Assembly: GCA_963823445.1 (NCBI GenBank)
Contig: CAWGLT010000023.1
Span: forward strand, 151,018 to 215,017
Length of the DNA stretch: 64,000 bases
DNA from: an uncultured Acidobacteriota bacterium
Lineage (GTDB): Bacteria; Acidobacteriota; Thermoanaerobaculia; Thermoanaerobaculales; Sulfomarinibacteraceae
Direction of reading: 5' to 3'
Position numbers and translations under genes: made by a program. The notes beneath the pieces were generated by a model that saw only the letters and a program-made list of their open reading frames with translations, made no database searches and was not told where the DNA came from. Positions 4,209-54,162 of the stretch are shown here, piece by piece (position 1 is the first letter of the stretch; each line of letters begins with the position of its first letter).

Positions 4209-5627
4209 TCAGGGGAAGACCCCGAGCTCGCGGTACGACACGGCGATCTTGTCGATGGCGGCGATCATCGAGGCGGTGCGGAGATCGACGCCTTCGCCCT
4301 TTGCCATCTTGATGCCCCGTATCTCATGATAGGCCTCGATCATGGTTTCCTCGAGACCCGAGTTGACGAGATCGATCTCGTCGGGGCCCTTGGCGATCTC
4401 GGCGATTTCGGCGTCGGTGAAGATCCGGTTGGTGGAGTTCTCGATGGCCGACAGGAGCATTCGGCTCGAACTCTCGACAAAGCGCTTTTCCATCCGGCCG
4501 AAGCGCACGTGCTGGAGGTTTTTCAACCACTCGAAATAAGAGACCGTGACACCGCCGGCGTTGATGTACGCGTCGGGGATGATGAGCGTGCCCCGCTCGA
4601 AAAGAAAGTGCGATGCGTCCGAGCTGATGGGACCGTTGGCCGCCTCGGCGATGATCTTGGCCTGGATCCGCGGGGCGTTGTCCATGGTGATGGCGTTTTC
4701 TAAGGCGGCTGGAATCAGGATGTCGCAGTCGATCTCGAGACCGGCGTCGCGGGAGGGAAGAGCCACGGCGCCGGGGAAACCAAGGATCGAACCGGTCGCC
4801 TTGCGATGGGCCATCAAGGACTCGACATCGATCCCGGAAGGGCAAGAGATCGAGCCCTCGTACTCGACGACACCGACGATCACCGCGCCGCCGTCCTCCT
4901 GCATGAACTTGGCGGCGTGATAGCCGACGTTGCCGAGACCCTGAACCACGACCCGTTTCCCCTCGAGACCCGGGGTCAATCCGAGCGCCCGCATGTCGTC
5001 GCCGACGAGGCAGGCTTCGCGGAGGCCGAAATAGACGCCGCGGCCGGTGGCCTCGGTCCGACCCCGGATCCCGCCCTGGCCGACCGGTTTCGCGGTGACG
5101 CAGCCCAGACCGTCGATCTCGTGCGGGTTGAGGGTCATATAGGTGTCGGCGATCCATGCCATCTCACGGCTCGAGGTCGCGAAGTCCGGCGCCGGGACAT
5201 CGAGGCCGGGGCCGATGAAGTTTTTCTTGTTGAGCTCGTAGGTATACCTGCGGGTGATGCGTTCGAGTTCTTTCACCGAGTACTCGTGGGCCGAGATCCT
5301 GACTCCGCCCTTGGCCCCGCCGAACGGGACGTTGACGATCGCGCACTTGTAGGTCATGAGAGCCGACAGCGCCATGACCTCGTCTTCGTTGACGTTGGCG
5401 GCATACCGGATGCCGCCCTTGGTGGGCAACTTGTGTTGGCTGTGTTCCGCACGCCAGGCATGGATGACCTTGAGCGAACCGTCGTCTCGGATGAGTGGGA
5501 AGGTGAAGTGAATGACGCTGTTGACGCTCTTGATCTGCTCGAGCAGTCCGGGCGGGTGGTCGGTCAATGCGGCGGCTCGATCGAAATTCTTGTTGACTTG
5601 ATCGAAAAAACTGAGATCGGCGGTCAT
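4209..5627 (-). CDS. gdh: Glu/Leu/Phe/Val-family (glutamate) dehydrogenase
   Basis: 472 aa starting at MTADLSFF (ATG at 5627, GAGGGGG SD). Motifs [15 protein letters not shown] and GLGNVG. The upstream part of the 599-aa track ORF looks non-coding. Confidence 0.9.
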
Positions 5628-5790
5628 GAGGCACCCCCTCGCAAATGATTTTACTGAAAGGCCGGGAAAGCATACCACCGACATCGCCGGCTCCGTGGCC
5701 TTCAGCCGCAGTTTGCGGATTTCTCCCGCGCTGCAACCATTGGTCGGTTGCGGCCAAGTACTGGAGATGACGGAGAATGAGAGGCTGACG

Positions 5791-6327
5791 ATGAAACGCA
5801 TGATGACGTTGACGATGGTCGTGATCGGACTCGGGATAGCCGGGATCCGCGCAGCGGAGAACGGGGGGCAAGAAATGGGCGAAGTCATTTCCGTGTGGTC
5901 GGTGGAAGAGGGGAAGATGATCTCGACTGCCAGAATCATCAAGAGCGATGACGATTGGCAGCGGGAGCTGTCTCCGGAGGTGTACAAGATCACCCGAAGA
6001 AAGGGCACCGAGATGTCGTGCTCCGGAGCCTACTGGAAGAACGATCGCGAAGGTGTCTACCGCTGCGCCGCCTGTGGGAACGATCTCTTCGTCTCGACCA
6101 CGAAGTACACGTCCGGCACGGGCTGGCCGAGCTTCTTCCAACCGGTCCACGACGCAAACATCGGCAGCGAGCGCGACACCAGTCTGGGCATGGTGCGCGT
6201 CGAGGTTCATTGCGAGCGTTGTGGATCCCACCTCGGCCACGTCTTTCCCGACGGACCGAAACCCACCGGAAAGAGGTATTGCATCAATTCGCTGGCCCTC
6301 GACTTCGTCGAGATGGAAGTCAAGTAA
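5791..6327 (+). CDS. msrB: peptide-methionine (R)-S-oxide reductase with signal peptide
   Basis: Two CxxC pairs ([21 protein letters not shown]) and GWPSF. Signal-like [18 protein letters not shown]. The start could also be ATG 5767. Confidence 0.85.
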
Positions 6328-6330
6328 TTT

Positions 6331-6437
6331 TCAATTATGAATTTTTAATTATGAATTATGAATTGCGGAAGCTCTTCGACACCGTCGTGAGAATCTGCGA
6401 TGGAATTCATAATTCACAATTCATAATTCATAATTGA
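6331..6437. repeat. AT-rich hairpin built from heptad repeats (GAATTAT)n / (ATAATTC)n
   Basis: The 5' arm TCAATTATGAATTTTTAATTATGAATTATGAATTGCG pairs imperfectly with the 3' arm GGAATTCATAATTCACAATTCATAATTCATAATTGA. The loop is ~30 nt of normal GC content. It sits between msrB and the next gene. Confidence 0.85.
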
Positions 6438-6441
6438 TGCC

Positions 6442-9715: not shown

Positions 9716-11512
9716 TCAGGAGCCCGTCGCAGGCAGGGCTGGATGCATGACGCGATAGATCGGCAGAAGACCGACCTGCTCGTCCCAGTGCGGGGTCCGC
9801 CGGTACCACCAGTCGTAACGCGCGCGCCCGTCGGCGGCGAAATCGGGATTCTCGAGCGCCGACTCCCACTCCGCCCTGGTGGCGTCGTCGGCGAGCATCT
9901 CGACCGCCAGCTCCTCGAGCTTGTCGAGCCCGATATAGGTCTTTTGCTCGAAGACCGAGTCGAGCGCGCCCCAGCGCAGCAGCGAATCCGGCGCCTCGGG
10001 TTCGAAGAGCTGGACCGCGACGGCGAAGTCCGGCTGGTCGGCCGGGATCCACAGGCTGCCCGCGGGGATCCGGCGGGTCTCCGTCTGCCGGGTGGTGACG
10101 AAATCCCTGACCATCACCGTGCCCTGGAAGGGAGCCTCGGCGAAGACCGGTGCGGCGACCCGGATGGTCTCGACCTCGAGCTCGACGGGCGCGGACAGGC
10201 GCTGCGTCACCAGGTGGTGCGCTTCGACCACCTCGACGAGCTGCGGCCAACCCGCGTGGACGAGATAGCCGCGCGGGCGCGCGAGCTCGAGTTCGGGCGC
10301 CGCAACGTGCCGGAAGGAGATCTCGGCCGGGACGATCTCGTCGCGGTGGTAGACAGTGCGCGGTCCGCCGGTGACCACCGAGGTCTCGGTGGTGGTGCGG
10401 TAGGACGGCCAGGTGAACTCGTCGTCGCTGTCGACGCCGCGCCACCGCACGATCACGGTCGACGGATCGGCGTCCGGTCCTGCCGAGAGCGCGGGTCCTC
10501 GCTTCCGCCGCCTGCGACCGCCGCAACGAGCGTCGACCCGGACCGGCCGGTCTCGACGATGAGGGCGTCCATGAAGTCGCGGTTGGCGAGCACCCGATCC
10601 CGGTACGGCTTGTGCGCGTGCATCTCGATGAGGATCGACGGCCGATTGATGAGCGGGAAGAACCCGGTCGAGTAGCGCGGCAGCTGGATGTCCGACCAGT
10701 CGACCCCGCTCGTCGGGTCGTCCCAGTCGACGAACGCGAGGTAGGGGCCGTTGGGGTGGCCGGCGGCGGCGGTGGCGTCGAGCACCCGCGGCAGGTGCGC
10801 AGCGACCCAGGCGTCGACCGCGGGGTCGAGTCGAGGTGCCTCGGCGACCATCCAGGTCAGAACCCAGGCGTGGTCGGAGCCGTTGGTGACGTGGTTGTCG
10901 ACGTGGAGGTGCGGCCGCCAGTCGGCGACGAGCTGCGCGAGCGCCCGCGCCTCGGGGCTCGCGAGCCGGAGGAAGTCGCGGTTGAGGTTGAGCCCGGCGG
11001 TGGTGGCGCGAAAGCCCATGCCCTCGACCGGGCCGTTCTGGTTGGGCCGGTTGTACGGCGAGACCCGCTCGTGGCCGTCGAGGTTGAAGATCGGCACGAA
11101 GAGCGTCACCGCCGCCTCGGCGAGATCCGGGCCGTCGGCCCAGGGCGATCTCGCGCAAAAGCATGAGGGTGGCGTCCTTGCCGTCGATCTCGCCGGCGTG
11201 GATGCCGCTTTGCAACAGCAGGATCGGCTTGCCGGCGGCGCGGGCAGCGGCCGGGGTGAAGGCTCCGTCGGACGAGACGATGACGAGGGGCAGCTCGCGG
11301 CCCTCGGCGGTTTCGCCGAAGCTCGTGACGCGGATGGTCTTCGGAGCGCGCGACTCGACGCGGCGGAGGAAGTCCATGGTCTCGGCAACGGTCGATGTGG
11401 CGCGGAAGTCGGTCTTCTCCGCCACCGTCTGCCAGACCTCGGGGACGTCCTCGGCGGTTGCGGGGCAGGGGAGGAGCAAGACAAGGCCGGCGAAGAGGGA
11501 AAGTCGTTTCAT
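9716..11512 (-). pseudogene. M14-family zinc carboxypeptidase, coding sense split over two reading frames
   Basis: The signal peptide, HxxE (SGIHAGEIDG) and the C-terminal third read in the frame of ORF 9716..11608. The central ~650 nt (TLFVPIFNLDGHER, NLNRDF, LHVDNH, ILIEMH) reads only in the frame of ORF 10453..11484. Frame switches are near 11140-11160 and 10485-10510. Confidence 0.55.
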
Positions 11513-11519
11513 GGCCGCC

Positions 11520-11547
11520 ACTCTAGCCCATCGCATTCTTACCGCAA
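11520..11547 (-). promoter_or_regulatory. sigma70-like promoter TTGCGG-16-TAGAGT, 7 nt before the ATG of the M14 gene
   Basis: Minus-strand reading is TTGCGGtaagaatgcgatgggcTAGAGTggcggccATG. The same module occurs at 13406-13433. Confidence 0.45.
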
Positions 11548-11595
11548 AGACCGCCAAGAACGCAAAGGACGTTGCAAAGGACATCGCCATATTGA
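11520..11595 (-). repeat. 9-nt-periodic repeat module E, copy 1
   Basis: ACCGCAAAG ACCGCCAAG AACGCAAAG GACGTTGCAAAG GAC. Homologous to 13403-13475 and to the arms of the hairpin at 16281-16438. Confidence 0.8.
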
Positions 11596-11699
11596 CCCGT
11601 CGCGGCATCGCACAATGGCGTGCCCGGCACCCCGAGGGACGTTTCTTTCCCTCCGACCCGGGGCGGCATCTGCCGCTGTCGGCCCGGCCGCTGCCGCTG

Positions 11700-11800
11700 C
11701 CCCCGACAGGCTGGAAGCCTGTCGCTACACAGGGGCCGTTCTTGATTGTGTAGCGACAGCCATCCTGGCTGTCGTCGGTGACGTGCCCGAACGCGGTACC
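11700..11800 (+). repeat. REPIN-like triple-hairpin element, copy A1
   Basis: GACAGGCT-GGA-AGCCTGTC (11705-11723), GCTACACA-15nt-TGTGTAGC (11724-11754), GACAGCCA-TCC-TGGCTGTC (11755-11773), with a conserved tail GTCGGTGACGTGCCCGAACGCGGT. Confidence 0.9.
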
Positions 11801-11907
11801 CTACCGCTGCCCCGGCCGCTGTCAGTGACGCTGTCCCGGCCGCTGTCGCTGTTCCCGGTTCTCACGGCTCCGGCCTTCCGGTCCGCCTTCGGCGGCCCGG
11901 CGTCGCC

Positions 11908-12126
11908 CCATCGGCGGGGTCGCTTGGGTGGTGAATGGGAAGGGCTGCGACCCCGCCGATGGCGCGCCGGCGGCCTTCTTCGTTGCCGGAGCAGAGGACC
12001 GCATCGCGCCTCCCGGGGGAGCCCGGTATGACAATGTGCGCAACGGGTTGCGGTGCCGGGAGGACTTTGGGGCACATTGTCAAACCCCGCACCCCGAGGA
12101 TCGCCCCTTTCCCTCCGACCCGGGGC
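11908..12126 (+). repeat. composite structured repeat B, copy B1
   Basis: 16-bp hairpin CCATCGGCGGGGTCGC/GCGACCCCGCCGATGG (11908-11962), then hairpin TGACAATGTGC/GCACATTGTCA (12029-12082), then a GCACCCCGAGG tail. Homologous to 26611-26886 (inverted) and 40839-41053. Confidence 0.85.
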
Positions 12127-12236
12127 AGTCTCGGTTCGGGTCCCGGGTGCGGTCGCTGGTTGCTGCCGCTGTCCCTGCTTGCTGTCGCTGATCGCTGCCA
12201 CTGATTGCCGCCGCCGCTCTGTGGTGGCCGCGGAAC

Positions 12237-19391: not shown

Positions 19392-19458
19392 GGGAATCGC
19401 TCGATTGACATCCCCTCGGCACCGGCCGACGCGTTCCCTGTCGATGCCCCTGCCGCTG

Positions 19459-19600
19459 CCCCCGACAGGCTGGAAGCCTGTCGCTACACAGCGGCCGTTC
19501 TTGATTGTGTAGCGACAGCCATCCTGGCTGTCGTCGGTGACGTGCCCGAACGCGGTCCCCTGCCGCTGCCGCTGCCGCTGACGCTGCGGCTGCCGCTGCC
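19459..19600 (+). repeat. REPIN-like triple-hairpin element with (GCTGCC)n tail, copy A2
   Basis: Hairpins at 19464-19482, 19483-19513 and 19514-19532. Nearly identical to A1 and A3. Confidence 0.9.
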
Positions 19601-19603
19601 GTC

Positions 19604-19659
19604 GGTCGCTGCCCCGGTCGCGCGGTCGCTGCCCCGGTCGCTGCCCCGGTCGCTGCCCC
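19604..19659 (+). repeat. 12-mer microsatellite (GGTCGCTGCCCC)n
   Basis: Four full units and one truncated unit between A2 and A3. Confidence 0.9.
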
Positions 19660-19797
19660 CGACAGGCTGGAAGCCTGTCGCTACACAGCGGCCGTTCTTG
19701 ATTGTGTAGCGACAGCCATCCTGGCTGTCGTCGGTGACGTGCCCGAACGCGGTACCCTGCCGCTGCCGCTGCTGCTGACGCTGCGGCTGCCGCTGCC
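19656..19797 (+). repeat. REPIN-like triple-hairpin element with (GCTGCC)n tail, copy A3
   Basis: Starts 197 bp after A2. Hairpins at 19661-19679 and 19711-19729 flank the central GCTACACA/TGTGTAGC hairpin. Confidence 0.9.
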
Positions 19798-19867
19798 CCT
19801 GCTTGCGCGCTGAATCGGAAACGGGTTCGGAGGCAATTGCGGGCGAGGTGGGCTACAGTACGGTGCC

Positions 19868-22177: not shown

Positions 22178-22249
22178 GCCGACCGGACCCGTGCGGGTTG
22201 ATCCGGCGGAATCGCTCATCCCGGGTGGCGATGGACAGCACCCCCTCGC

Positions 22250-22405
22250 TTGCGTAGACTCGAGAGGACCGAATATGGGGAAGACGGTGCGAATCCGTCG
22301 CGGACCCGCCGCTGTGACCGGGGACGATGACCGGCAGAACCACTGCAATCGGTGATTGTGGGAAGGGCCGGTAGGTAGGACGATCCGGGAGCCAGAAGAC
22401 CCGCA
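22250..22405 (+). promoter_or_regulatory. cobalamin (B12) riboswitch
   Basis: GGGGAAGACGGTGCGAATCCGTCGCGGACCCGCCGCTGTGACCGGGGACGA ... CAGAACCACTG ... GGGAAGG ... GGGAGCCAGAAGACCCGC matches the conserved core and B12 box as I remember them. It lies directly upstream of a BtuF-like binding-protein gene. Confidence 0.8.
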
Positions 22406-22440
22406 GTTCGGCTTTGACGACCCTCGTGGATTGGGGTTTG

Positions 22441-23403
22441 ATGCTCAGATATCCAGGATGGAATACGGCATCCCGGAGGCCTCGAGGCTTCCGGTTTTTG
22501 TGTGTTGGAGCGATCTTGGACATTCGCCTTATTGCCTGGGTTCTCGCCATTGCCGTTCTGGTTGTCGCAACCTCGGCGTGTGGCGGGCATGGCGAACCCG
22601 CGACGGTGGATGTGCCGCGGCGGATCGTGGCCATGGCTCCGAGCCTCACGGAAACTCTCCTCGCCCTCGATCTCGGAGACCGGGTCGTCGGCGTGACCCG
22701 GTACTGCCCGAAGGTCGCCGGTGCGGTCAACGTGGGCGGCTACTTCGATCCGAGCTACGAGACCATCCTCTCGCTCGATCCCGATCTCGTGATCGTCATG
22801 CAGTCGCACGACGAGCTGCACCGGCGGCTCGGCGATCTCGGTCTCGACACCCTGAGGGTCGATCAGCACGACGTCGAGGGAATTCTGGTTTCGGTGGAAG
22901 CCATCGCGACGCGGTGTGGCGTCGAACGGCGCGGCCGCGACCTGGTTCTTGGCCTTCGGCAGGCGCTCGACAAGGTCGCGATGGCCGTCGCGGGGCTGCC
23001 TCGGCCGCGGGTGCTGGTCGTCGTCGGTCGCGAACCCGGAGGCGGCCGGATCGGCACCTTGTGGGCCGCCGCGGACGACACCTTCTACGATGACGTGATC
23101 GGTCTGTCCGGTGGCCTCAACGCGATTTCAAGCAGCGTGATCCGCTATCCCGAGTTGTCCCGCGAAGGGCTCATCGCGGTGGATCCCGATGTGATTCTCG
23201 ATGTCGTGGCCGATGGCGGGGTGCGGGGGGTCAGCGTGGACGCGGCCGCCGCAGACTGGCTGGAGCTCGAAGATCTGCGGGCGGTGCAGGACCACCGGGT
23301 CCACGTCCTGATGCAGGACTTCGTGGTGGTCCCCGGGCCGCGGATCGTCGACACGGTTCGAGCCTTTGCCGAGCGTCTTCATCCGGAGCTCCGATGGGAG
23401 TGA
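22441..23403 (+). CDS. ABC transporter periplasmic binding protein (BtuF / cluster A type)
   Basis: Signal/lipobox (VVATSACGG), RIVAMAPSLTETLLAL and GVTRYC motifs. The start is uncertain (TTG 22414, ATG 22441, TTG 22498). Confidence 0.75.
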   Translation: MLRYPGWNTASRRPRGFRFLCVGAILDIRLIAWVLAIAVLVVATSACGGHGEPATVDVPRRIVAMAPSLTETLLALDLGDRVVGVTRYCPKVAGAVNVGGYFDPSYETILSLDPDLVIVMQSHDELHRRLGDLGLDTLRVDQHDVEGILVSVEAIATRCGVERRGRDLVLGLRQALDKVAMAVAGLPRPRVLVVVGREPGGGRIGTLWAAADDTFYDDVIGLSGGLNAISSSVIRYPELSREGLIAVDPDVILDVVADGGVRGVSVDAAAADWLELEDLRAVQDHRVHVLMQDFVVVPGPRIVDTVRAFAERLHPELRWE

Positions 23404-25272: not shown

Positions 25273-26484
25273 CTACTCGCCCGCCTCGTTCTCCGGGAAG
25301 TGCTCGACGACAACATCGAGATGATCGGTGAGCTCTTTGAGCTCGCGGGTCAGGGCGCGGCCGATGACGAGCCGCTGGACCTGGTTGGTGCCCTCGTAGA
25401 TCTGGGTGATCTTGGCGTCCCGCATGTACTTCTCGATGGGGTAATCCCTGCAGTAACCGTAACCGCCGAAGAGCTGCACTGCGTCGGTGGTGACCCTCAT
25501 GGCGGTGTCGGTGGCGAAGACCTTGCCCATGGCGGCGATCTTGTTGACGTTGGCGGCGCCCGAGTCGATGACCCGCGCCGAGTGGTAGACGAGTTGCCGG
25601 GCGGCCTCGATCTGGGTCGCCATGTCGGCGAGCATGAACTGGATTGCCTGGTGCGACATGACCGTTTGACCGAACTGCTTGCGCTCCGAGGTGTAGCGCA
25701 TGGCCCATTCGAAGGCGCCCTGGGCGAGTCCGAGGGCCTGGGCGGCGACCCCCGGGCGCGCCCGGTCGAGGGTCATCATGGCGTTCTTGAAGCCGACGTT
25801 CTCCTTGTCGCCCATGAGCTGTGACGCCGGAACCCGGCAGTCGGTGAACTCGAGCTCGTTGACCGGGACGGTGCGGATGCCCATGGTGTCTTCGCGCTTG
25901 CCGACGGTGAAGCCCGGAGTGTCCTTTTCGACGATGAAGGCCGAAATCCCACGCATGCCGCGGGCGGGGTCGGTGAGGGCGTAGACGGTGAAGGTCGAGG
26001 CGACCCCGCCGTTGGTGTTCCACTTTTTCTGGCCGTTGAGGACGTAGTCATCGCCGTCCTTGATCGCGGTCGTGCGCAGGCTGCCCGCGTCGGAACCCGA
26101 AGGCTTCTCGGAGAGACCGAAGGCGATGAGGGCATCGCCGGCGGCGATGGGCGGGAGGTATTTCTGCTTCTGCTCCTCGGTGCCTCCGATGATGATGGGG
26201 AAGGACCCCAGGGCATTGACGGCGAAGGCGACGCCGACGCCGCCGCACGCGCGGGACAGCTGCTCGACGATGAGACAGAGGTTGAGTACGCCGGCGTCCT
26301 TGCCGCCGTACTCCTCGGGGATCCAGGCTCCGGTGAGCCCGTAGGACTTGAGGGCCTCGAGGATCTCCCAACCATACTCGCCGGTGCGGTCGAGCTCGGC
26401 GGCGACCGGGCGGACGTACTTTTCGGCCACTTCGCGGGCGCGTTCCTGATAGTCGAGGTTTTCTTTGCTCAGCAGCTCGTTCAT
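25273..26484 (-). CDS. acyl-CoA dehydrogenase
   Basis: 404 aa starting at MNELLSK (ATG 26484, GGAGGAGG SD). ACAD motifs (GLSEKPSGSDAGS, QLFGGYGY, IYEGTNQVQ). Confidence 0.9.
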   Translation of the reverse strand: MNELLSKENLDYQERAREVAEKYVRPVAAELDRTGEYGWEILEALKSYGLTGAWIPEEYGGKDAGVLNLCLIVEQLSRACGGVGVAFAVNALGSFPIIIGGTEEQKQKYLPPIAAGDALIAFGLSEKPSGSDAGSLRTTAIKDGDDYVLNGQKKWNTNGGVASTFTVYALTDPARGMRGISAFIVEKDTPGFTVGKREDTMGIRTVPVNELEFTDCRVPASQLMGDKENVGFKNAMMTLDRARPGVAAQALGLAQGAFEWAMRYTSERKQFGQTVMSHQAIQFMLADMATQIEAARQLVYHSARVIDSGAANVNKIAAMGKVFATDTAMRVTTDAVQLFGGYGYCRDYPIEKYMRDAKITQIYEGTNQVQRLVIGRALTRELKELTDHLDVVVEHFPENEAGE

Positions 26485-26610
26485 GGTTGCCTCCTCCGCG
26501 TCGGATGCCCGCCATTCTCGCACATCATCCCGCGTCCGCGTCGGTTTCCGTGCCCATGCCCGATGTCTCAGCGGCAGCGGCAACCAGCGGCAACAACCAG
26601 CGACCGATAC

Positions 26611-26886
26611 GCCCTCCAGGACCCGCGGAAAACCACGCCCCATCGGGGTGCCGGGTTTGACATTGTGCCGGAGCGACCGACCAGCTTCGCGGCGCTCCCC
26701 GCACAATGTCATACCGGGCTCCCCCGGGACGGGCGATGAAGTCTGATCTCCCGGCTACGAAGCAGGCCGCCGGCGTGCCATCGGCGTGGTCGCAGCCCTT
26801 TCAATCAACCCGCGAGCGACCACGCCGATGGCGCGACGCTGGGCCGCTGGGACGCCAAAGCGTCACGGCGGCCCGGAAGGCCGGGG
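26611..26886 (-). repeat. composite structured repeat B, copy B2 (inverted)
   Basis: Hairpins TGACATTGTGC/GCACAATGTCA (26658-26711), CCATCGGCGTGGTCGC/GCGACCACGCCGATGG (26778-26831) and GACGC-CAAA-GCGTC (26851-26864). Roughly 85% identical by eye to 40800-41053 when reverse-complemented. Confidence 0.85.
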
Positions 26887-27113
26887 ATGAGGACAGCATC
26901 AGGGGCAGCATCAGCGACAGCGTCAGGAATCACCGACAGCGACAGCGGCGGCGGCAGTCTTCAGGGGCAGCGACAGTGGCAGCAATCAGGGACAGCGTCA
27001 GGAACCAACGGCAAAACGTGCGCGATCGGACGTTTCCCTTGACGCGGATCGCAGCATCAACACTCCTGGTTGTTCTTGATGAGACGGGAATCTGCGCCTC
27101 TGCGTTGAAACCG

Positions 27114-39851: not shown

Positions 39852-40070
39852 CCCTCGGGGCTTCCAGGATCCGTGCCCGGGTCCGCGTCCGATTCCGTTT
39901 CCGTTCCCGATCCCGATCCCGGTCCCGAATAGCAGCGTCCGGGGCAGTGGCAGCGGCAGCGCCAGGGGCAGCGACCGGGGCAGCGGCAGGAACAGCGGCG
40001 GCGTCAGCCTCCGCGTTTCTTTCCGTGCCCGTATCCGCTTCCGTGACAGATCCGAGCCGATCTGCGATGG

Positions 40071-40838
40071 ATTGTGGGGGCGGGCTTCCAGCCTGCCCGT
40101 CAGGGTTGTTGAAGCCGGCCGTGCGTTCCCGAGAGAGTGCGGGGTATTGGGTCTTGTGGGATCTCGGGTTCCTGTCCTCCTCCCCGGCCTTCTGGGCCGC
40201 CGTGACGCTCTGGCGTCCCGGCGACCCAGCGTCGCACCATCGGCGTGGTCGCGGTTTTCTTTCAGGTTGGGCGGACATTGTGGGGGCGGGCTTCCAGCCT
40301 GCCCGTCAGGGTTGTTGAAGCCGGCCGTGCGTTGCCGAGAGAGTGCGGGGTATTGGGTCTTGTGGGATCTCGGGTTCCTGCCCTCGTCCCCGGCCTTCTG
40401 GGCCGCCGTGACGCTGTTGCGTCCCGGTGTCCCAGCGTCGCACCATCGGCGTGGTCGCGGTTTTCTTTCAGGTTGGGCGGTCATTGTGGGGGCGGGCTTC
40501 CAGCCTGCCCGTCAGGGTTGTTGAAGCCGGCCGGGCGTTGCCGAGAGAGTGCGGGGTATTGGGTCTTGCGGGATCTCGGGTTCCTGCCCTCGTCCCCGGC
40601 CTTCTGGGCCGCCGTGACGCAGTGCGTCCCGGCGACCCAGCGTCGCGCCATCGGCGCAGTCGCGGTTTTCTTTCAGGTTGGGCGGACATTGTGGGGGCGG
40701 GCTTCCAGCCTGCCCGTCAGGGTTGTTGAAGCCGGCCGTGCGTTGCCGAGAGAGTGCGGGGTATTGGGTCTTGCGGGATCTCGGGTTCCTGCCCTCCTCC
40801 CCGGCCTTCTGGGCCGCCTCCGGCGACCCAGCGTCGCA
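40071..40838 (+). repeat. tandem array of four ~206-bp structured non-coding units
   Basis: Units start with ATTGTGGGGG at 40071, 40277, 40483 and 40688 (periods 206, 206, 205). Copies 1-3 are ~95% identical by eye. Copy 4 lacks one internal hairpin and merges into element B3. Confidence 0.9.
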
Positions 40839-41053
40839 CCATCGGCGCGGTCGCGCGTGGGAGGCGGGGAGGGCTGCGACCACGCCGATGGCGCGCCGGC
40901 GGCCTGCCTCGCAGCCGGGAGAGCAGACCGCATCGCGCCTCCCGGGGGAGCCCGGTATGACATTGTGCGGGGAGCGCCGCGAAGCCTGGAGGTCGATCCG
41001 GCACAATGTCAAACCCGGCACCCCGATGGGGCGGGGTATTCCGCGGGTCCTGG
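40839..41053 (+). repeat. composite structured repeat B, copy B3
   Basis: Hairpins CCATCGGCGCGGTCGC/GCGACCACGCCGATGG (40839-40891) and TGACATTGTGC/GCACAATGTCA (40958-41011), with tail AAACCCGGCACCCCGATGGGGCGGGGTATTCCGCGGGTCCTGG. Confidence 0.85.
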
Positions 41054-41170
41054 TCGGGCGCTGTCGCTGTCGCTGATTCCTGCCGCTGTCCTGCCGCTGT
41101 TCCTGCCGCTGTCCCGGCCGCTGCATGCTGCCCCTGCCGCTGTCCCGGATACGGTTGTATCCTCGCGGTC

Positions 41171-49704: not shown

Positions 49705-49809
49705 CGTGAGACGTGAGGGGGTGAGGAAGTGAGGAGGTTCGAAGGCGAGGAGTGGAGTGTGAAGAACCTCCTAACCCCTAACTCCTAACCCCTCACTCTT
49801 CACCTCTCG
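49705..49809. repeat. heptad-periodic imperfect hairpin (GTGAGGN)n / (CCTAACN)n
   Basis: CGTGAGACGTGAGGGGGTGAGGAAGTGAGGAGGTTC ... GAACCTCCTAACCCCTAACTCCTAACCCCTCACTCTTCACCTCTCG. The right arm overlaps the 3' end of the HD-GYP CDS. Confidence 0.75.
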
Positions 49810-53915: not shown

Positions 53916-54013
53916 TTCGTGATCTCCCTGCAGGCACGATGGGTGCCGAATGAGTATACGGGGGCTGCGATGCAGGGTTTGACCGAAAACGGGTAGGATG
54001 AGGTGTCAATTTT

Positions 54014-54162
54014 GAATGATGAATTATGAATTATGAATTATGAATTATGAGTTGAGAATTCGGAGTGAGGTGTGAGGAAGTACGTGCTGCGGTAAGGGGT
54101 GCGACACGCCCAACGTCTAACGTCTAACGTCTAACCCCTAACGTCCAACTCCTAACCTCCTG
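54014..54162. repeat. two abutting heptad arrays: (GAATTAT)4 grading into GAGTGAG/GTGTGAG, then (CGTCTAA)3 grading into CCCCTAA/CTCCTAA
   Basis: 7-nt periodicity over about 10 units on the left (54014-54083) and about 7 units on the right (54114-54162), in a divergent promoter region. Confidence 0.8.

Follow-up and report, generated by a model that had tools for sequence, protein, structure and literature searches.

The H2 hairpin, a 16-bp stem found at three sites in the window (the whole 64,000-nucleotide stretch of DNA analysed here), is a single helix of a modular, multi-helix intergenic element of ~280 nt and is not free-standing. The element contains, in order, helices H1 and H2, helices H3/H4, a 15–20 bp helix H5, and a 3' tail hairpin. 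A conserved core of ~270 nt is common to all three copies in the window, and the copies at 26.8 kb and 40.8 kb are 92% identical across 184 nt. The unpaired loops and junctions are as conserved as the stems, and in the main subtype a T-rich stretch lies past the tail hairpin. Folding of copy 2 as a whole element gives z-scores of −5.75 and −7.72 on the two strands. The copies, their helices, and a remnant of another copy are located as follows.

11859–12137, + strand: full copy 1, short-H1 subtype (nhmmer 11860–12135, model positions 2–291, 214 bits; aligned)
11878–11900, + strand: H1 of copy 1, CCGGTCCGCC-TTC-GGCGGCCCGG, short form without the mini-hairpin (from sequence)
11908–11962, + strand: H2 of copy 1, variable pair G:C (predicted fold −44.4 kcal/mol on +, −45.4 kcal/mol on −)
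12025–12086, + strand: H5 of copy 1, GGTATGACAATGTGC ... GCACATTGTCAAACC, with A:T swapped relative to copies 2 and 3 (from sequence and covariation)
26603–26895, − strand: full copy 2, long-H1 subtype, in the opposite orientation to copies 1 and 3 (nhmmer 26893–26610, 286 bits)
26839–26876, − strand: H1 of copy 2, with the mini-hairpin GTGACGC-TTTG-GCGTCCC inserted (from sequence, alignment, and covariation)
26778–26831, − strand: H2 of copy 2, variable pair T:A, 20 contiguous pairs (predicted folds −47.2 and −45.6 kcal/mol)
26654–26715, − strand: H5 of copy 2 (from sequence, alignment, and fold)
40790–41066, + strand: full copy 3, short-H1 subtype (nhmmer 40792–41059, 245 bits)
40809–40831, + strand: H1 of copy 3 (from sequence and alignment)
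40839–40891, + strand: H2 of copy 3, variable position C opposite A (from sequence, pattern scan, and fold)
40954–41015, + strand: H5 of copy 3 (from sequence and alignment)
11610–11664, + strand: 3'-tail remnant of another copy (80% identical to 12072–12126; repeat family D12)

A pattern scan of the window recovers CCATCGGCGNGGTCGC as mismatch-free inverted pairs at three sites: 11908–11923/11947–11962 (N = G:C), 26778–26793/26816–26831 (N = T:A), and 40839–40854/40876–40891 (N = C opposite A). These coordinates and pairs agree exactly with those of an earlier, sequence-only reading of the window. With up to two mismatches allowed, CCATCGGCGNGGTCGC has 16 matches in the window versus 1.5 expected, and none of 100 shuffles reaches 16. 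Its left arm occurs alone at 40237, 40443, and 40648 (the last with one mismatch), as anticipated by the claim that the left arm alone closes each unit of a 206-bp array. The 26.8k stem, proposed to extend to ~20 bp, indeed contains 20 contiguous pairs. The loops had been described as ~21 nt long, differing in sequence, and ending in AGGGCT or AGCCCT. They measure 21–23 nt, and in the element's own orientation each loop finishes, on its 3' side, with AGGGCT; because the 26.8k copy is inverted, AGCCCT appears at the start of its loop on the + strand. Folding, suggested at that time as a check, predicts stable hairpins on both strands, with energies from −41.6 to −47.2 kcal/mol for the three copies and z-scores from −3.0 to −6.8 for five of the six strand/copy folds. 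The description of the hairpin as "present three times" stands for the three window sites, but the unit was drawn too small: the hairpin is a single helix within a ~280-nt element that has over 100 relatives, and the longer repeat that encloses the three hairpins had been missed.

Using nhmmer, we recovered 112 full copies and ~50 partial copies from three Acidobacteriota MAGs and metagenome loci. An exact 20-mer of the right module marks 35 sites in 3 uncultured Acidobacteriota MAGs, and a left-anchor pattern that leaves H2 unconstrained marks at least 120 metagenome loci. Each MAG carries at least 11–16 copies. The family belongs to Thermoanaerobaculales-like Acidobacteriota, and its consensus is kept from soil MAGs to marine-sediment contigs. 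In Rfam 15, at the gathering threshold, the only match in the whole window is a cobalamin riboswitch, with no match to the element, and in E-value mode two copies give only generic hairpin matches to miRNA models, 30–180 bits below their thresholds. When five diagnostic sequence strings were searched in the literature, the sole matches were unrelated primers that hit the 12-mer among them, and no description of the repeat family was found.

The H2 stem is maintained as a base-paired structure. In a 43-copy alignment (A3), 94.3% of the cells are paired, and pairs changed on both sides number 21, compared with 5.9 ± 1.6 in shuffles (0/500) and at most 11 in slid controls. Whole arm variants exchange together, for example CCATCGGCG/CGCCGATGG with CCGAGCAGCG/CGCTGCTCGG. 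Across the 112 full copies, H2 columns 57/108 contain CG 70, GC 33, and AT 7; columns 59/106 contain TA 80 and GC 20; columns 61/104 contain GC 67 and AT 41; and columns 70/95 contain GC 81 and AT 20. The variable position of the sequence-only reading (columns 65/100) contains T:A 86, C:G 10, G:C 2, C·A 6, T·G 4, and four others (A·A 3, T·C 1). A 5' C is paired with a 3' G in 10 copies versus ~2 expected (Fisher p = 1e-7), which supports the claim that this pair covaries. That claim was to be given up if uncompensated changes proved as frequent as compensated ones in additional copies; by this measure the single position fails, with 12 compensated changes (C:G 10, G:C 2) and 14 uncompensated ones. 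Seven further H2 pairs have two or three Watson-Crick types. Covariation of H5 exceeds that of H2, with 10 of 15 H5 pairs changed on both sides, and changes on both sides are also present among the H1 pairs of the family. One-sided G-C/G-T noise dominates a covariation scan of all column pairs, and H2 and H5 stand out under stricter criteria.

None of the 112 full copies overlaps a called gene, the gene calls being approximate (the calling criterion includes GC1 > GC2). The upstream neighbour is on the same strand as the element in 47 cases and on the opposite strand in 38, and the downstream neighbour in 41 and 45, respectively; 14 of the 67 classifiable copies lie between divergent genes. 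No neighbour gene recurs, with at most six loci sharing any family, and the 133 neighbours covered by a Pfam scan are housekeeping genes. A cis-regulator of one gene family was rejected on account of the unbiased orientation, the non-recurrent neighbours, and their housekeeping character.

Genomes with flanking proteins that are 70–95% identical carry copies at matching sites, in at least 10 syntenic locus pairs. Identity at orthologous sites is 57–98% for the copies versus 16–82% for the remaining spacer. In one example the element is 85% identical and the remaining spacer 29%, while copy 2 and its counterpart at the orthologous site of locus L007 are 98% identical, with 82% for the remaining spacer. 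Such in-place conservation resembles purifying selection acting on each copy at the host level, something not predicted for a purely selfish repeat. Truncated copies with only the left module are also kept at orthologous sites (L118/L141). Mean copy identity is 0.68–0.79 within a genome and 0.70–0.78 between genomes; within-genome identity thus equals between-genome identity, and there is no sign of recent spread. The MeaB/radical-SAM spacer of copy 3, traced in other genomes through homologues of its MeaB protein, is occupied by other element variants in two related genomes. Deletions between short direct repeats are seen in L150 and L015_7647. An autonomous parent element is also unsupported: in L118 and L078, where copies are split or partial, the sequence lying between the parts encodes a Na+/H+ antiporter and an M14 peptidase.

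Hexamer arrays of the type (C[T/G]GNNN)n flank the core with a polarity that matches the element (58:22 upstream, 70:9 downstream), and the upstream arrays are phase-locked to the element over ~45 nt. Near copy 3 there is in addition a 206-bp tandem array, each unit of which contains a degenerate "ATTGTGG..GCGGGC..GCCCG..CAGG" hairpin module, a "GAGAGAGTGCGGGG" module, H1, and the 5' arm only of H2. Partial matches to model positions 3–81 lie in this array at 40176–40253, 40381–40459, and 40587–40664. The arrays in the window are as follows.

11804–11847, + strand: hexamer/dodecamer array 5' of copy 1, polarity following the element strand (TRF)
12152–12190, + strand: hexamer-type array 3' of copy 1 (TRF)
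26894–27002, − strand: hexamer array 5' of copy 2, CAGCGN on the + strand and CKG-type on the element strand (TRF)
26560–26610 (approximate), − strand: hexamer array 3' of copy 2, agcggcagcggcaaccagcgg... (from sequence)
39889–40008, no strand assigned: hexamer arrays in the 40k spacer, at its distal (radical-SAM) end, with polarity opposite to that of the arrays adjoining the element (TRF; inverted repeat with 41093–41124, I24)
40071–40818, + strand: 206-bp tandem array, 3.6 units (TRF score 1377, 96% matches)
41059–41123, + strand: hexamer array directly 3' of copy 3, CGCTGTCCTGCC type (TRF)

The element is also oriented with respect to strand composition. Its + strand is the G-rich strand of the locus in 57 of 77 copies (~75%, p = 3e-5), with skew over 4–13 kb loci being a noisy proxy for the replication strand. 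Counted per locus, the tally is 44 versus 12, and the bias remains when skew is balanced over genes on both strands (22 versus 8, p = 0.016). Orientation does not follow the majority gene strand (22 versus 29). The three window copies are oriented +, −, +, although the skew of the window is uniformly positive.

It is very improbable that the element has no function, with its complementarity generated by template switching in quasi-palindromes or by gene conversion, and its copies being decaying junk. Such an origin would be consistent with the equal frequency of intermediates and compensated pairs at columns 65/100, with the deletions between short direct repeats, and with the occupant of the MeaB spacer, whose subtype differs between related genomes and suggests conversion or replacement. 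It is difficult to reconcile, however, with unpaired loops and junctions that are as conserved as stems, with copies better conserved than the spacers around them, and with a consensus held across soil and marine sediment, and template switching leaves the orientation bias unexplained.

The C opposite A in copy 3 had been taken for a G·U pair in a minus-strand transcript. The larger alignment lends this no support: C·A and T·G are about equally frequent, and neither strand shows G·U in excess of A·C when the helices are taken together. In the clean H5 columns, read on the + strand, A·C outnumbers G·U (41 versus 18). Copies in sense to flanking transcription have G·U 17 and A·C 15, and antisense copies have 13 and 21, a difference that is not significant (p = 0.32). 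The ratio of G·U to A·C was rejected as a strand marker, since it has no consistent asymmetry and no significant association with transcription of the flanks. A scan for transcription signals, which covered the 26.8k copy alone, found no sigma-70-like promoter and no intrinsic terminator around it; specifically, 26450–27100 contains 0 terminator-like sites, and no T-run follows H2. H2 was itself rejected as an intrinsic terminator, since its loop is 21–23 nt versus the 3–8 nt required and the T-run is absent.

These data bear on two explanations at the RNA level. In the first, which we consider somewhat unlikely, the element is a cis module of transcripts, namely read-through or UTR hairpins that would block 3' exonucleases, offer sites for RNase III-type processing, or insulate transcription, like REP/BIME and ERIC sequences. 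Because the stems are palindromic, such a module would fold in either orientation, and hairpin energies are ~−45 kcal/mol on both strands. The strictly intergenic placement, the multi-helix architecture with compensatory changes and conserved loops, and the in-place conservation well above spacer would all be expected of it. There is also a precedent: in PMC6006769, REP sequences reportedly stabilise mRNA and terminate transcription. The wobble counts given above show a weak trend with the direction of the incoming gene, but one that does not reach significance, and G·U is not in excess overall. Copies between divergent genes and the missing terminator-like T-run around the 26.8k copy also speak against a cis-RNA role, which leaves unexplained both the G-rich-strand bias and the way the arrays keep polarity and phase.

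In the second, which is clearly unlikely, the element encodes an independent multi-copy ncRNA on its + strand, either a trans-acting sRNA or a guide/scaffold RNA that serves, or was left behind by, a mobile-element nuclease or recombinase; HEARO/omega-RNA families, too, first came to notice as multi-copy motifs. A length of ~280 nt, five to six helices with strong covariation, conserved unpaired stretches, and the T-rich stretch after the tail hairpin of the main subtype are features of such an RNA, and its absence from Rfam 15 would make it a new class. Its polarity would be the one defined by the arrays, and the orientation bias would make its sense strand co-directional with replication, like that of many expressed genes. 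On the other hand, no promoter-like site is present around the 26.8k copy, and the mismatches are opposite to the prediction for a + strand RNA, with A·C equal to or exceeding G·U on that strand (as in the clean H5 columns). No associated protein gene is found in 150 loci, and the truncated left-module-only copies are conserved as well. The sole tertiary contact examined, a pseudoknot between GGGCU of the H2 loop and AGCCC upstream of H5, is unsupported and was rejected, with 35 uncompensated changes in the loop.

Alternatively, the palindromes could be kept for extrusion or for binding of dimeric proteins, the element serving host proteins such as nucleoid-associated proteins or gyrase as a duplex or cruciform DNA site, or being a boundary/topology element as proposed for BIMEs. 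We regard this as improbable. Loops of 21–35 nt, as in the element, disfavour cruciform extrusion, and a sequence-specific dimeric binder would forbid the complementary swaps of whole arms. Array polarity and skew bias are likewise unexpected of a symmetric duplex. Independence from gene orientation, dispersal among housekeeping genes, conservation in place, and a symmetric mismatch spectrum are nevertheless consistent with a duplex site, and REPs are described as binding IHF, Pol I, and gyrase (PMC6006769).

Searches for mobile-element features gave negative results. In 0.93 Mb of loci around the copies, tblastn with E. coli RayT returned only matches with E ≥ 0.12, spurious and inside membrane-protein ORFs, and no transposase family is among the 25 listed of the 164 Pfam families hit by the 133 neighbours. 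No TSD, TIR, or conserved 5' tetranucleotide was established for the element. The two ends of the core are unrelated, and the flanks are same-polarity hexamer arrays and not duplications. Identity as a MITE was rejected for lack of the TIR and target-site duplication that characterise MITEs. Integron attC sites and CRISPR repeats, which form single-orientation arrays interspersed with cassettes or spacers beside an integrase or cas genes, were rejected because the element is scattered among housekeeping genes and takes either orientation.

Comparison with known repeats points most closely to REP, BIME, and REPIN sequences. In passages of PMC3733652 and PMC6006769, these are high-copy, strictly intergenic palindromes, arranged singly, as inverted pairs that form a longer hairpin, in clusters, and in mosaics with other motifs, with sub-families that carry alternative complementary stem residues and with orthologous persistence that is mostly vertical. 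The element likewise has a high copy number, an intergenic location, and orthologous persistence. However, REPs are short palindromes of 20–40 nt with 6–13 bp stems and a 5' GTAG or CGTC tag, whereas the element has ~280 nt, five or six helices, 16–20 bp stems, conserved loops of 21–35 nt, and phased hexamer arrays. H2 alone resembles an inverted REP doublet, with two ~20-nt arms and a spacer of 21–23 nt, but it is always inside the ~280-nt unit. GTAG is absent. An invariant CGTC is located two bases 5' of the H2 foot (CAG-CGTC-GC-N-CCATCGG; CAGCGTCGC), separated from the stem, and published CGTC REPs differ from H2 in having 8–9 bp stems and 4–5 nt loops. RAYT genes adjoin REPs, and none was found beside any element copy in the 0.93 Mb of loci.

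In the same phylum, passages of PMC3733652 describe acidobacterial tyrosine transposases with repeat families, and the class 3 TnpA-Y1 "REPtron-like" systems are outlined for Acidobacteria and Planctomycetes by Quentin et al. 2018. There, "atypical secondary structures", up to ~600 per genome in Solibacter usitatus, form hairpins presumed to be handled as ssDNA. By description, class 3 structures carry a 5' CnGA foot and flank the Y1 gene; neither feature was established for the element, and no class 3 Y1 gene is present in the fetched loci around the copies.

Other families are less similar. IS200/IS605 ends and PATEs share with the element the absence of TIRs and of visible target duplication, hairpins near both ends, a length of 100–400 nt, and, probably, a strand-specific unit oriented with respect to replication. 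Their end hairpins are only 20–25 nt, whereas those of the element are larger, and no conserved flanking target tetranucleotide and no TnpA or TnpB gene was found. Active IS families are near-identical, whereas the element copies are old and diverged. The near-identical copies that PATE identity implies are not seen (within-genome identity 0.68–0.79), and no autonomous relative encoding TnpA (often with TnpB) was found. ERIC/IRU, Correia/NEMIS, and BOX elements, some of which are thought to act in transcripts, also have 100–300 nt and long stem-loops in either orientation between genes, but these families and MITEs are unrelated in sequence, lack phased hexamer arrays, and occur in other host phyla.

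We tentatively interpret the element as a REP/BIME/REPIN-type repeat that acts as folded single-stranded DNA, a reading that is plausible but falls short of probable. The stems would pair as the replication fork exposes the strand, and the folded element would then be recognised or processed by a trans-acting single-strand-specific enzyme. The obvious candidate would be a HuH/Y1 enzyme (TnpA-REP-like, "class 3"), as such enzymes are described as processing subterminal ssDNA hairpins of the lagging-strand template; a Y1-type enzyme may be involved. The G-rich strand would be the leading strand, so that the + strand of the element would lie on the lagging-strand template. Both strands fold about equally without G·U excess, and no promoter or terminator was found around the 26.8k copy, the symmetry expected of DNA; the folding partner would be DNA rather than RNA. 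The copies are old and mostly inherited in place rather than actively hopping. In favour of this reading are also the many compensatory changes, the intergenic placement without regard to gene direction, the G-rich-strand bias, and the arrays locked to the element in polarity and phase. Weighing against it, no Y1 enzyme or transposase was found in the searches above, no TSD, TIR, or tetranucleotide was established, there is no sign of recent spread, the copies look selected in place at the host level, skew is a noisy proxy for the replication strand, and the element is larger and more complex than REPs, with conserved loop and junction sequences.

Initiation signals of ssDNA phages and plasmids (G4-type origins and primosome assembly sites) are one-strand hairpin clusters and single-copy features of their replicons. 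E. coli primase begins its primers at the trinucleotide CTG. The element resembles these signals in having hairpin clusters beside CTG trinucleotides, a lead rather than a classification. By this analogy, the element could be a strand-oriented ssDNA signal retained by the host on the lagging-strand template, neither selfish DNA nor RNA, which we consider quite improbable. The covarying hairpin cluster within phased (CTG/CGG-NNN)n arrays, at fixed intergenic sites, would then be a chromosomal counterpart of hairpin-type initiation or primosome-loading signals, or another fork-associated signal. The G-rich-strand bias, arrays that keep polarity and phase with the element, copies conserved in place with no sign of recent spread, the failure to find a transposase, and the symmetric mismatch spectrum are compatible with such a signal.

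REP/BIME sequences and REPINs are well studied in Proteobacteria and hardly in Acidobacteriota. The family described here is unusual in being large and modular, with an uncommon amount of compensatory change in its stems, and in being kept at the same intergenic sites where spacers have diverged beyond alignment. Also unusual are its two strand-polarity signals, one from skew and one from the phased hexamer arrays, which point to ssDNA biology. If a Y1-type enzyme handles the element, REPtron-like systems would extend to much more complex substrates; if the element is transcribed, it would represent a new class of large structured RNA, distributed from soil to marine sediment. The alignment of more than 100 members is ready for experimental work. 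In addition, the element offers a practical way to recognise Thermoanaerobaculales-like genomes and is likely to cause breaks in assemblies.

The hairpin singled out by the sequence-only reading, hereinafter H2, is part of a much longer intergenic repeat. The arm CCATCGGCG-N-GGTCGC and its complement were found as inverted pairs at all three places where the hairpin had been described. Alignment of the three regions indicates that each hairpin is embedded in an element whose core is conserved over ~270 nt:

11859-12137, plus strand: copy 1, between M14 peptidase and GDSL lipase genes; H2 inverted pair at 11908/11947, N = G:C
26603-26895, minus strand: copy 2 (26.8k copy), between acyl-CoA dehydrogenase and unknown genes; H2 inverted pair at 26778/26816, N = T:A
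40790-41066, plus strand: copy 3 (40.8k copy), between radical SAM and MeaB genes; H2 inverted pair at 40839/40876, N = C opposite A

Copy 2 runs in the opposite direction to copies 1 and 3, and the genes bounding all three spacers are on the minus strand, indicating that element orientation is independent of the genes. Complementarity between copies 2 and 3 is 92% across 184 nt, and copy 2 also matches the units of the 206-bp array with one of its flanks. As had been claimed, the left arm stands without a partner at 40237, 40443, and 40648, each time ending a 206-bp unit. The arm pattern has 16 matches in the window with up to two mismatches, compared with 1.5 expected. Folding agrees with the hairpin, giving -41.6 to -47.2 kcal/mol per hairpin on either strand, with 20 contiguous pairs in the 26.8k stem; a whole element copy folds with z of -5.75 and -7.72 on the two strands relative to shuffles. 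The M14 peptidase ORF adjoining copy 1 (9716-11608, minus strand) has Pfam support near its N-terminus only, and a second long ORF in another frame (10453-11484, minus strand) has a better codon-position GC pattern downstream; this gene may carry a frameshift or assembly error.

The helices of the element were assigned by RNAalifold and inspection:

H1: CTGGGCCGCTG...CAGCGGCCCAG, with a mini-hairpin GTGACGC-TTTG-GCGTCCC inserted or absent
H2: the hairpin described before, extendable by CGC/GCG
H3/H4: around CCGGCGGCC...GCCGGGAG...CTCCC
H5: GGTATGACATTGTGC...GCACAATGTCAAACC, a stem of 15-20 bp that includes an A·A mismatch and closes a loop of 30-35 nt
Tail hairpin: variable

Partial copies consist of the left or the right module alone, with a breakpoint recurring near model position 166. 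Variants without H2 occur at two fetched loci (L150, spacer 4994-5313; L015, 7541-7701). These deletions are bounded by short direct repeats (CTTCTG/CCTCTG; CCGCCGGCGGCC), indicating that the remainder of the element can persist without H2.

The exact 20-mer CGGGGGAGCCCGGTATGACA from the right half of the element has 35 sites in 28 loci, all in three MAGs of uncultured Acidobacteriota from the Microflora Danica series, and a profile built from these loci added copies without the 20-mer, for a total of 43 full copies. Metagenomes were scanned with an anchor just 5' of H2 (CCGGCCTTCYGG-N10-36-CCAGCGTCG), which leaves H2 itself unselected; at least 120 loci were recovered, most with the whole element. 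After removal of palindromic cross-matches, there are at least 163 element matches, at least 112 of them full length. MeaB homologues with named sources are mostly labelled Thermoanaerobaculales, with one labelled Methylomirabilota and one Acidobacteriota.

Pairing in the stems is maintained, either by selection or by a process that depends on it. When H1, the mini-hairpin, H2, and H5 are specified as helices in the alignment of 43 copies, 94.3% of cells are paired and 21 of 43 pairs are changed on both sides; shuffles give 5.9±1.6 such pairs (0/500) and slid controls no more than 11. The covariation score reaches 0.109, compared with at most 0.033 in controls. Among 112 copies, complementarity is retained in whole-arm variants of H2 (CCATCGGCG/CGCCGATGG, CCGAGCAGCG/CGCTGCTCGG, CAATCAGCG/CGCTGATTG, CGGGCAGCG/CGCTGCCCG; GGTCGC/GCGACC, GGTCAT/GTGACC, GGTGAT/GTCACC). 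H5 is more variable than H2 (column 175/232, TA68 CG42; 177/230, TA59 CG36; 179/228, AT62 CG25 GC12). The variable pair N, proposed as covarying, is T:A in 86 copies, C:G in 10, G:C in 2, C·A in 6, T·G in 4, A·A in 3, and T·C in 1. The proposal holds in that C and G are associated (Fisher p = 1e-7), with C:G recurring across different sub-families, but uncompensated states (14) are no rarer than compensated ones (12). Covariation rests on the whole H2 helix, the single pair being insufficient alone.

The single C·A had been read as a G:U pair in a minus-strand transcript. This is unsupported: in clean columns the G·U to A·C counts are 38 vs 28 in H2 and 18 vs 41 in H5, with no consistent G·U excess on either strand, and wobble type shows a non-significant trend with the direction in which a gene reads into the spacer (p = 0.32). 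By approximate gene calls, no full copy overlaps a called gene, orientation is random relative to neighbours (same/opposite, 47/38 upstream and 41/45 downstream), and convergent, divergent, and tandem spacers are occupied at about expected rates. A role at the RNA level, within read-through transcripts, is the main rival explanation, possible though unlikely. An independent structured RNA is improbable, a protein site on duplex or cruciform DNA slightly more so, and an element without function highly improbable. Around the 26.8k copy, the sole copy scanned, neither a sigma-70-like promoter nor an intrinsic terminator was detected. No Rfam family matches the element.

Neighbours are unrelated housekeeping genes (e.g. 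IF3, L13, aconitase, DnaB, and Lon), the most widely shared family occurring at 6 loci. In at least 10 locus pairs from different genomes (flanking proteins 70-95% identical), including one with a truncated left-module copy, the element is found in the corresponding spacer with its relative orientation preserved. At syntenic sites the element is 57-98% identical and the remaining spacer 16-82%. Identity among copies within a genome (0.68-0.79) is no higher than between genomes (0.70-0.78), which argues against a recent burst of spread and against homogenisation. In the MeaB/radical-SAM spacer, the occupant differs among three related genomes:

Window: 206-bp array and a CCATCGGCG/TATGACA-type copy
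MAG CAVQJV: CCGAGCAGCG/CAGCGCT-type copy with long H1, 70% identical to that of the window
MAG CAVWAW: CAVQJV-type copy that has lost H2 between the direct repeats CTTCTG and CCTCTG

Likewise, where locus L016 has an extra copy, L022 has a short remnant and a hexamer array instead.

Both flanks of the element are periodic at 6 nt (autocorrelation of 0.35 for lag 6 vs ~0.26 for adjacent lags), and on the element plus strand the arrays have the form (C[T/G]G-NNN)n. Forward polarity predominates over reverse on the upstream side (58:22) and on the downstream side (70:9), the intergenic background being flat, and upstream arrays keep a fixed phase with the element edge for ~45 nt. In the window, arrays lie at 11804-11847, 12152-12190, 19560-19659, 19757-19802, 26894-27002, 39889-40008, and 41059-41123. 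They also flank most copies in loci L001-L148, with polarity and upstream phase locked to the adjoining element; their sequences are not alignable across orthologous sites.

With skew computed after masking elements and 500 nt on each side, the element plus strand coincides with the G-rich strand of the locus for 57 of 77 copies (p = 3e-5; by locus, 44 vs 12). Because coding strands are slightly C-rich in these genomes and gene direction influences skew, the bias was retested with skew balanced over both gene strands, and it persisted (22 vs 8, p = 0.016). Orientation does not match the majority gene strand (22 vs 29). Element polarity appears related to the replication strand, not to transcription. 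The G-rich strand is the leading strand in most bacteria; if so here, about three quarters of copies would have the plus strand on the lagging-strand template.

The spacers of the window genome look like mosaics built from several repeat families. Other repeat modules are often attached to the element, notably the small hairpin module ATTGTGGTGCGGGCG-loop-CGCCCGCAGG (22/151 loci), with the general form ATTGTGG[T/G]G[C/G]GGGC-loop-GCCCG.CAGG. This separate module often lies directly 5' of the element (e.g. L149, spacer 4994-5827; L023, L146, L060, and L106) and looks like a REP-sized repeat of its own; a degenerate form lies within each 206-bp unit at 40071-40818. A second structured repeat of ~176 nt, family B, occurs at 11666-11841 (directly 5' of copy 1), 19425-19600, and 19622-19797, those at 19.4k forming a 197-bp tandem (1.8 copies). 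Its three hairpins are GACAGGCT-GGA-AGCCTGTC, GCTACACA...TGTGTAGC, and GACAGCCATCCTGGCTGTC, and it is likewise flanked by GCTGCC-type hexamer arrays. AT-rich heptamer arrays, (AATTATG)n, lie in divergent spacers of this 65% GC genome at 6312-6438 (two, inverted) and 53994-54074; a similar AATTCATAATTC array adjoins an element copy at L140. Tandem repeats of 14-nt units at 49768-49798 and 54106-54157 share the motif TAACCCCT (CTCCTAACCCCTAA; AACGTCTAACCCCT). Intergenic segment pairs are 79-87% identical (13737-13817/52598-52678; 11510-11572/13396-13458; 52465-52575/57389-57499). A full-length cobalamin riboswitch (RF00174, 88.8 bits) lies at 22219-22422 on the plus strand, 5' of plus-strand ORFs with starts at ~22414-22606.

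A structured interspersed intergenic repeat is a known kind of element; neither Rfam nor the searchable literature yielded this family, its size and modularity, its phased polar hexamer arrays, or its replication-strand bias, and diagnostic element sequences had no match in the literature searched. Among HuH/Y1 enzymes, those of the IS200/IS605 and RAYT groups bind hairpins in lagging-strand-template ssDNA (PMC6006769), and tyrosine transposases with repeat families have been described in Acidobacteria (PMC3733652). We tentatively rank a REP/REPIN/REPtron-like reading first. However, no such enzyme was found in the loci searched: E. coli RayT, used as a tblastn query, matched the 0.93 Mb of fetched DNA only spuriously, and a Pfam scan of neighbours showed no transposase family among the 25 listed of 164 matched. 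Conservation in place resembles host-level constraint, and no REP approaches the element in size. The paired stems, replication-strand polarity, folding of both strands, and symmetric mismatches together fit folded single-stranded DNA, and it is in this form that the element would act.
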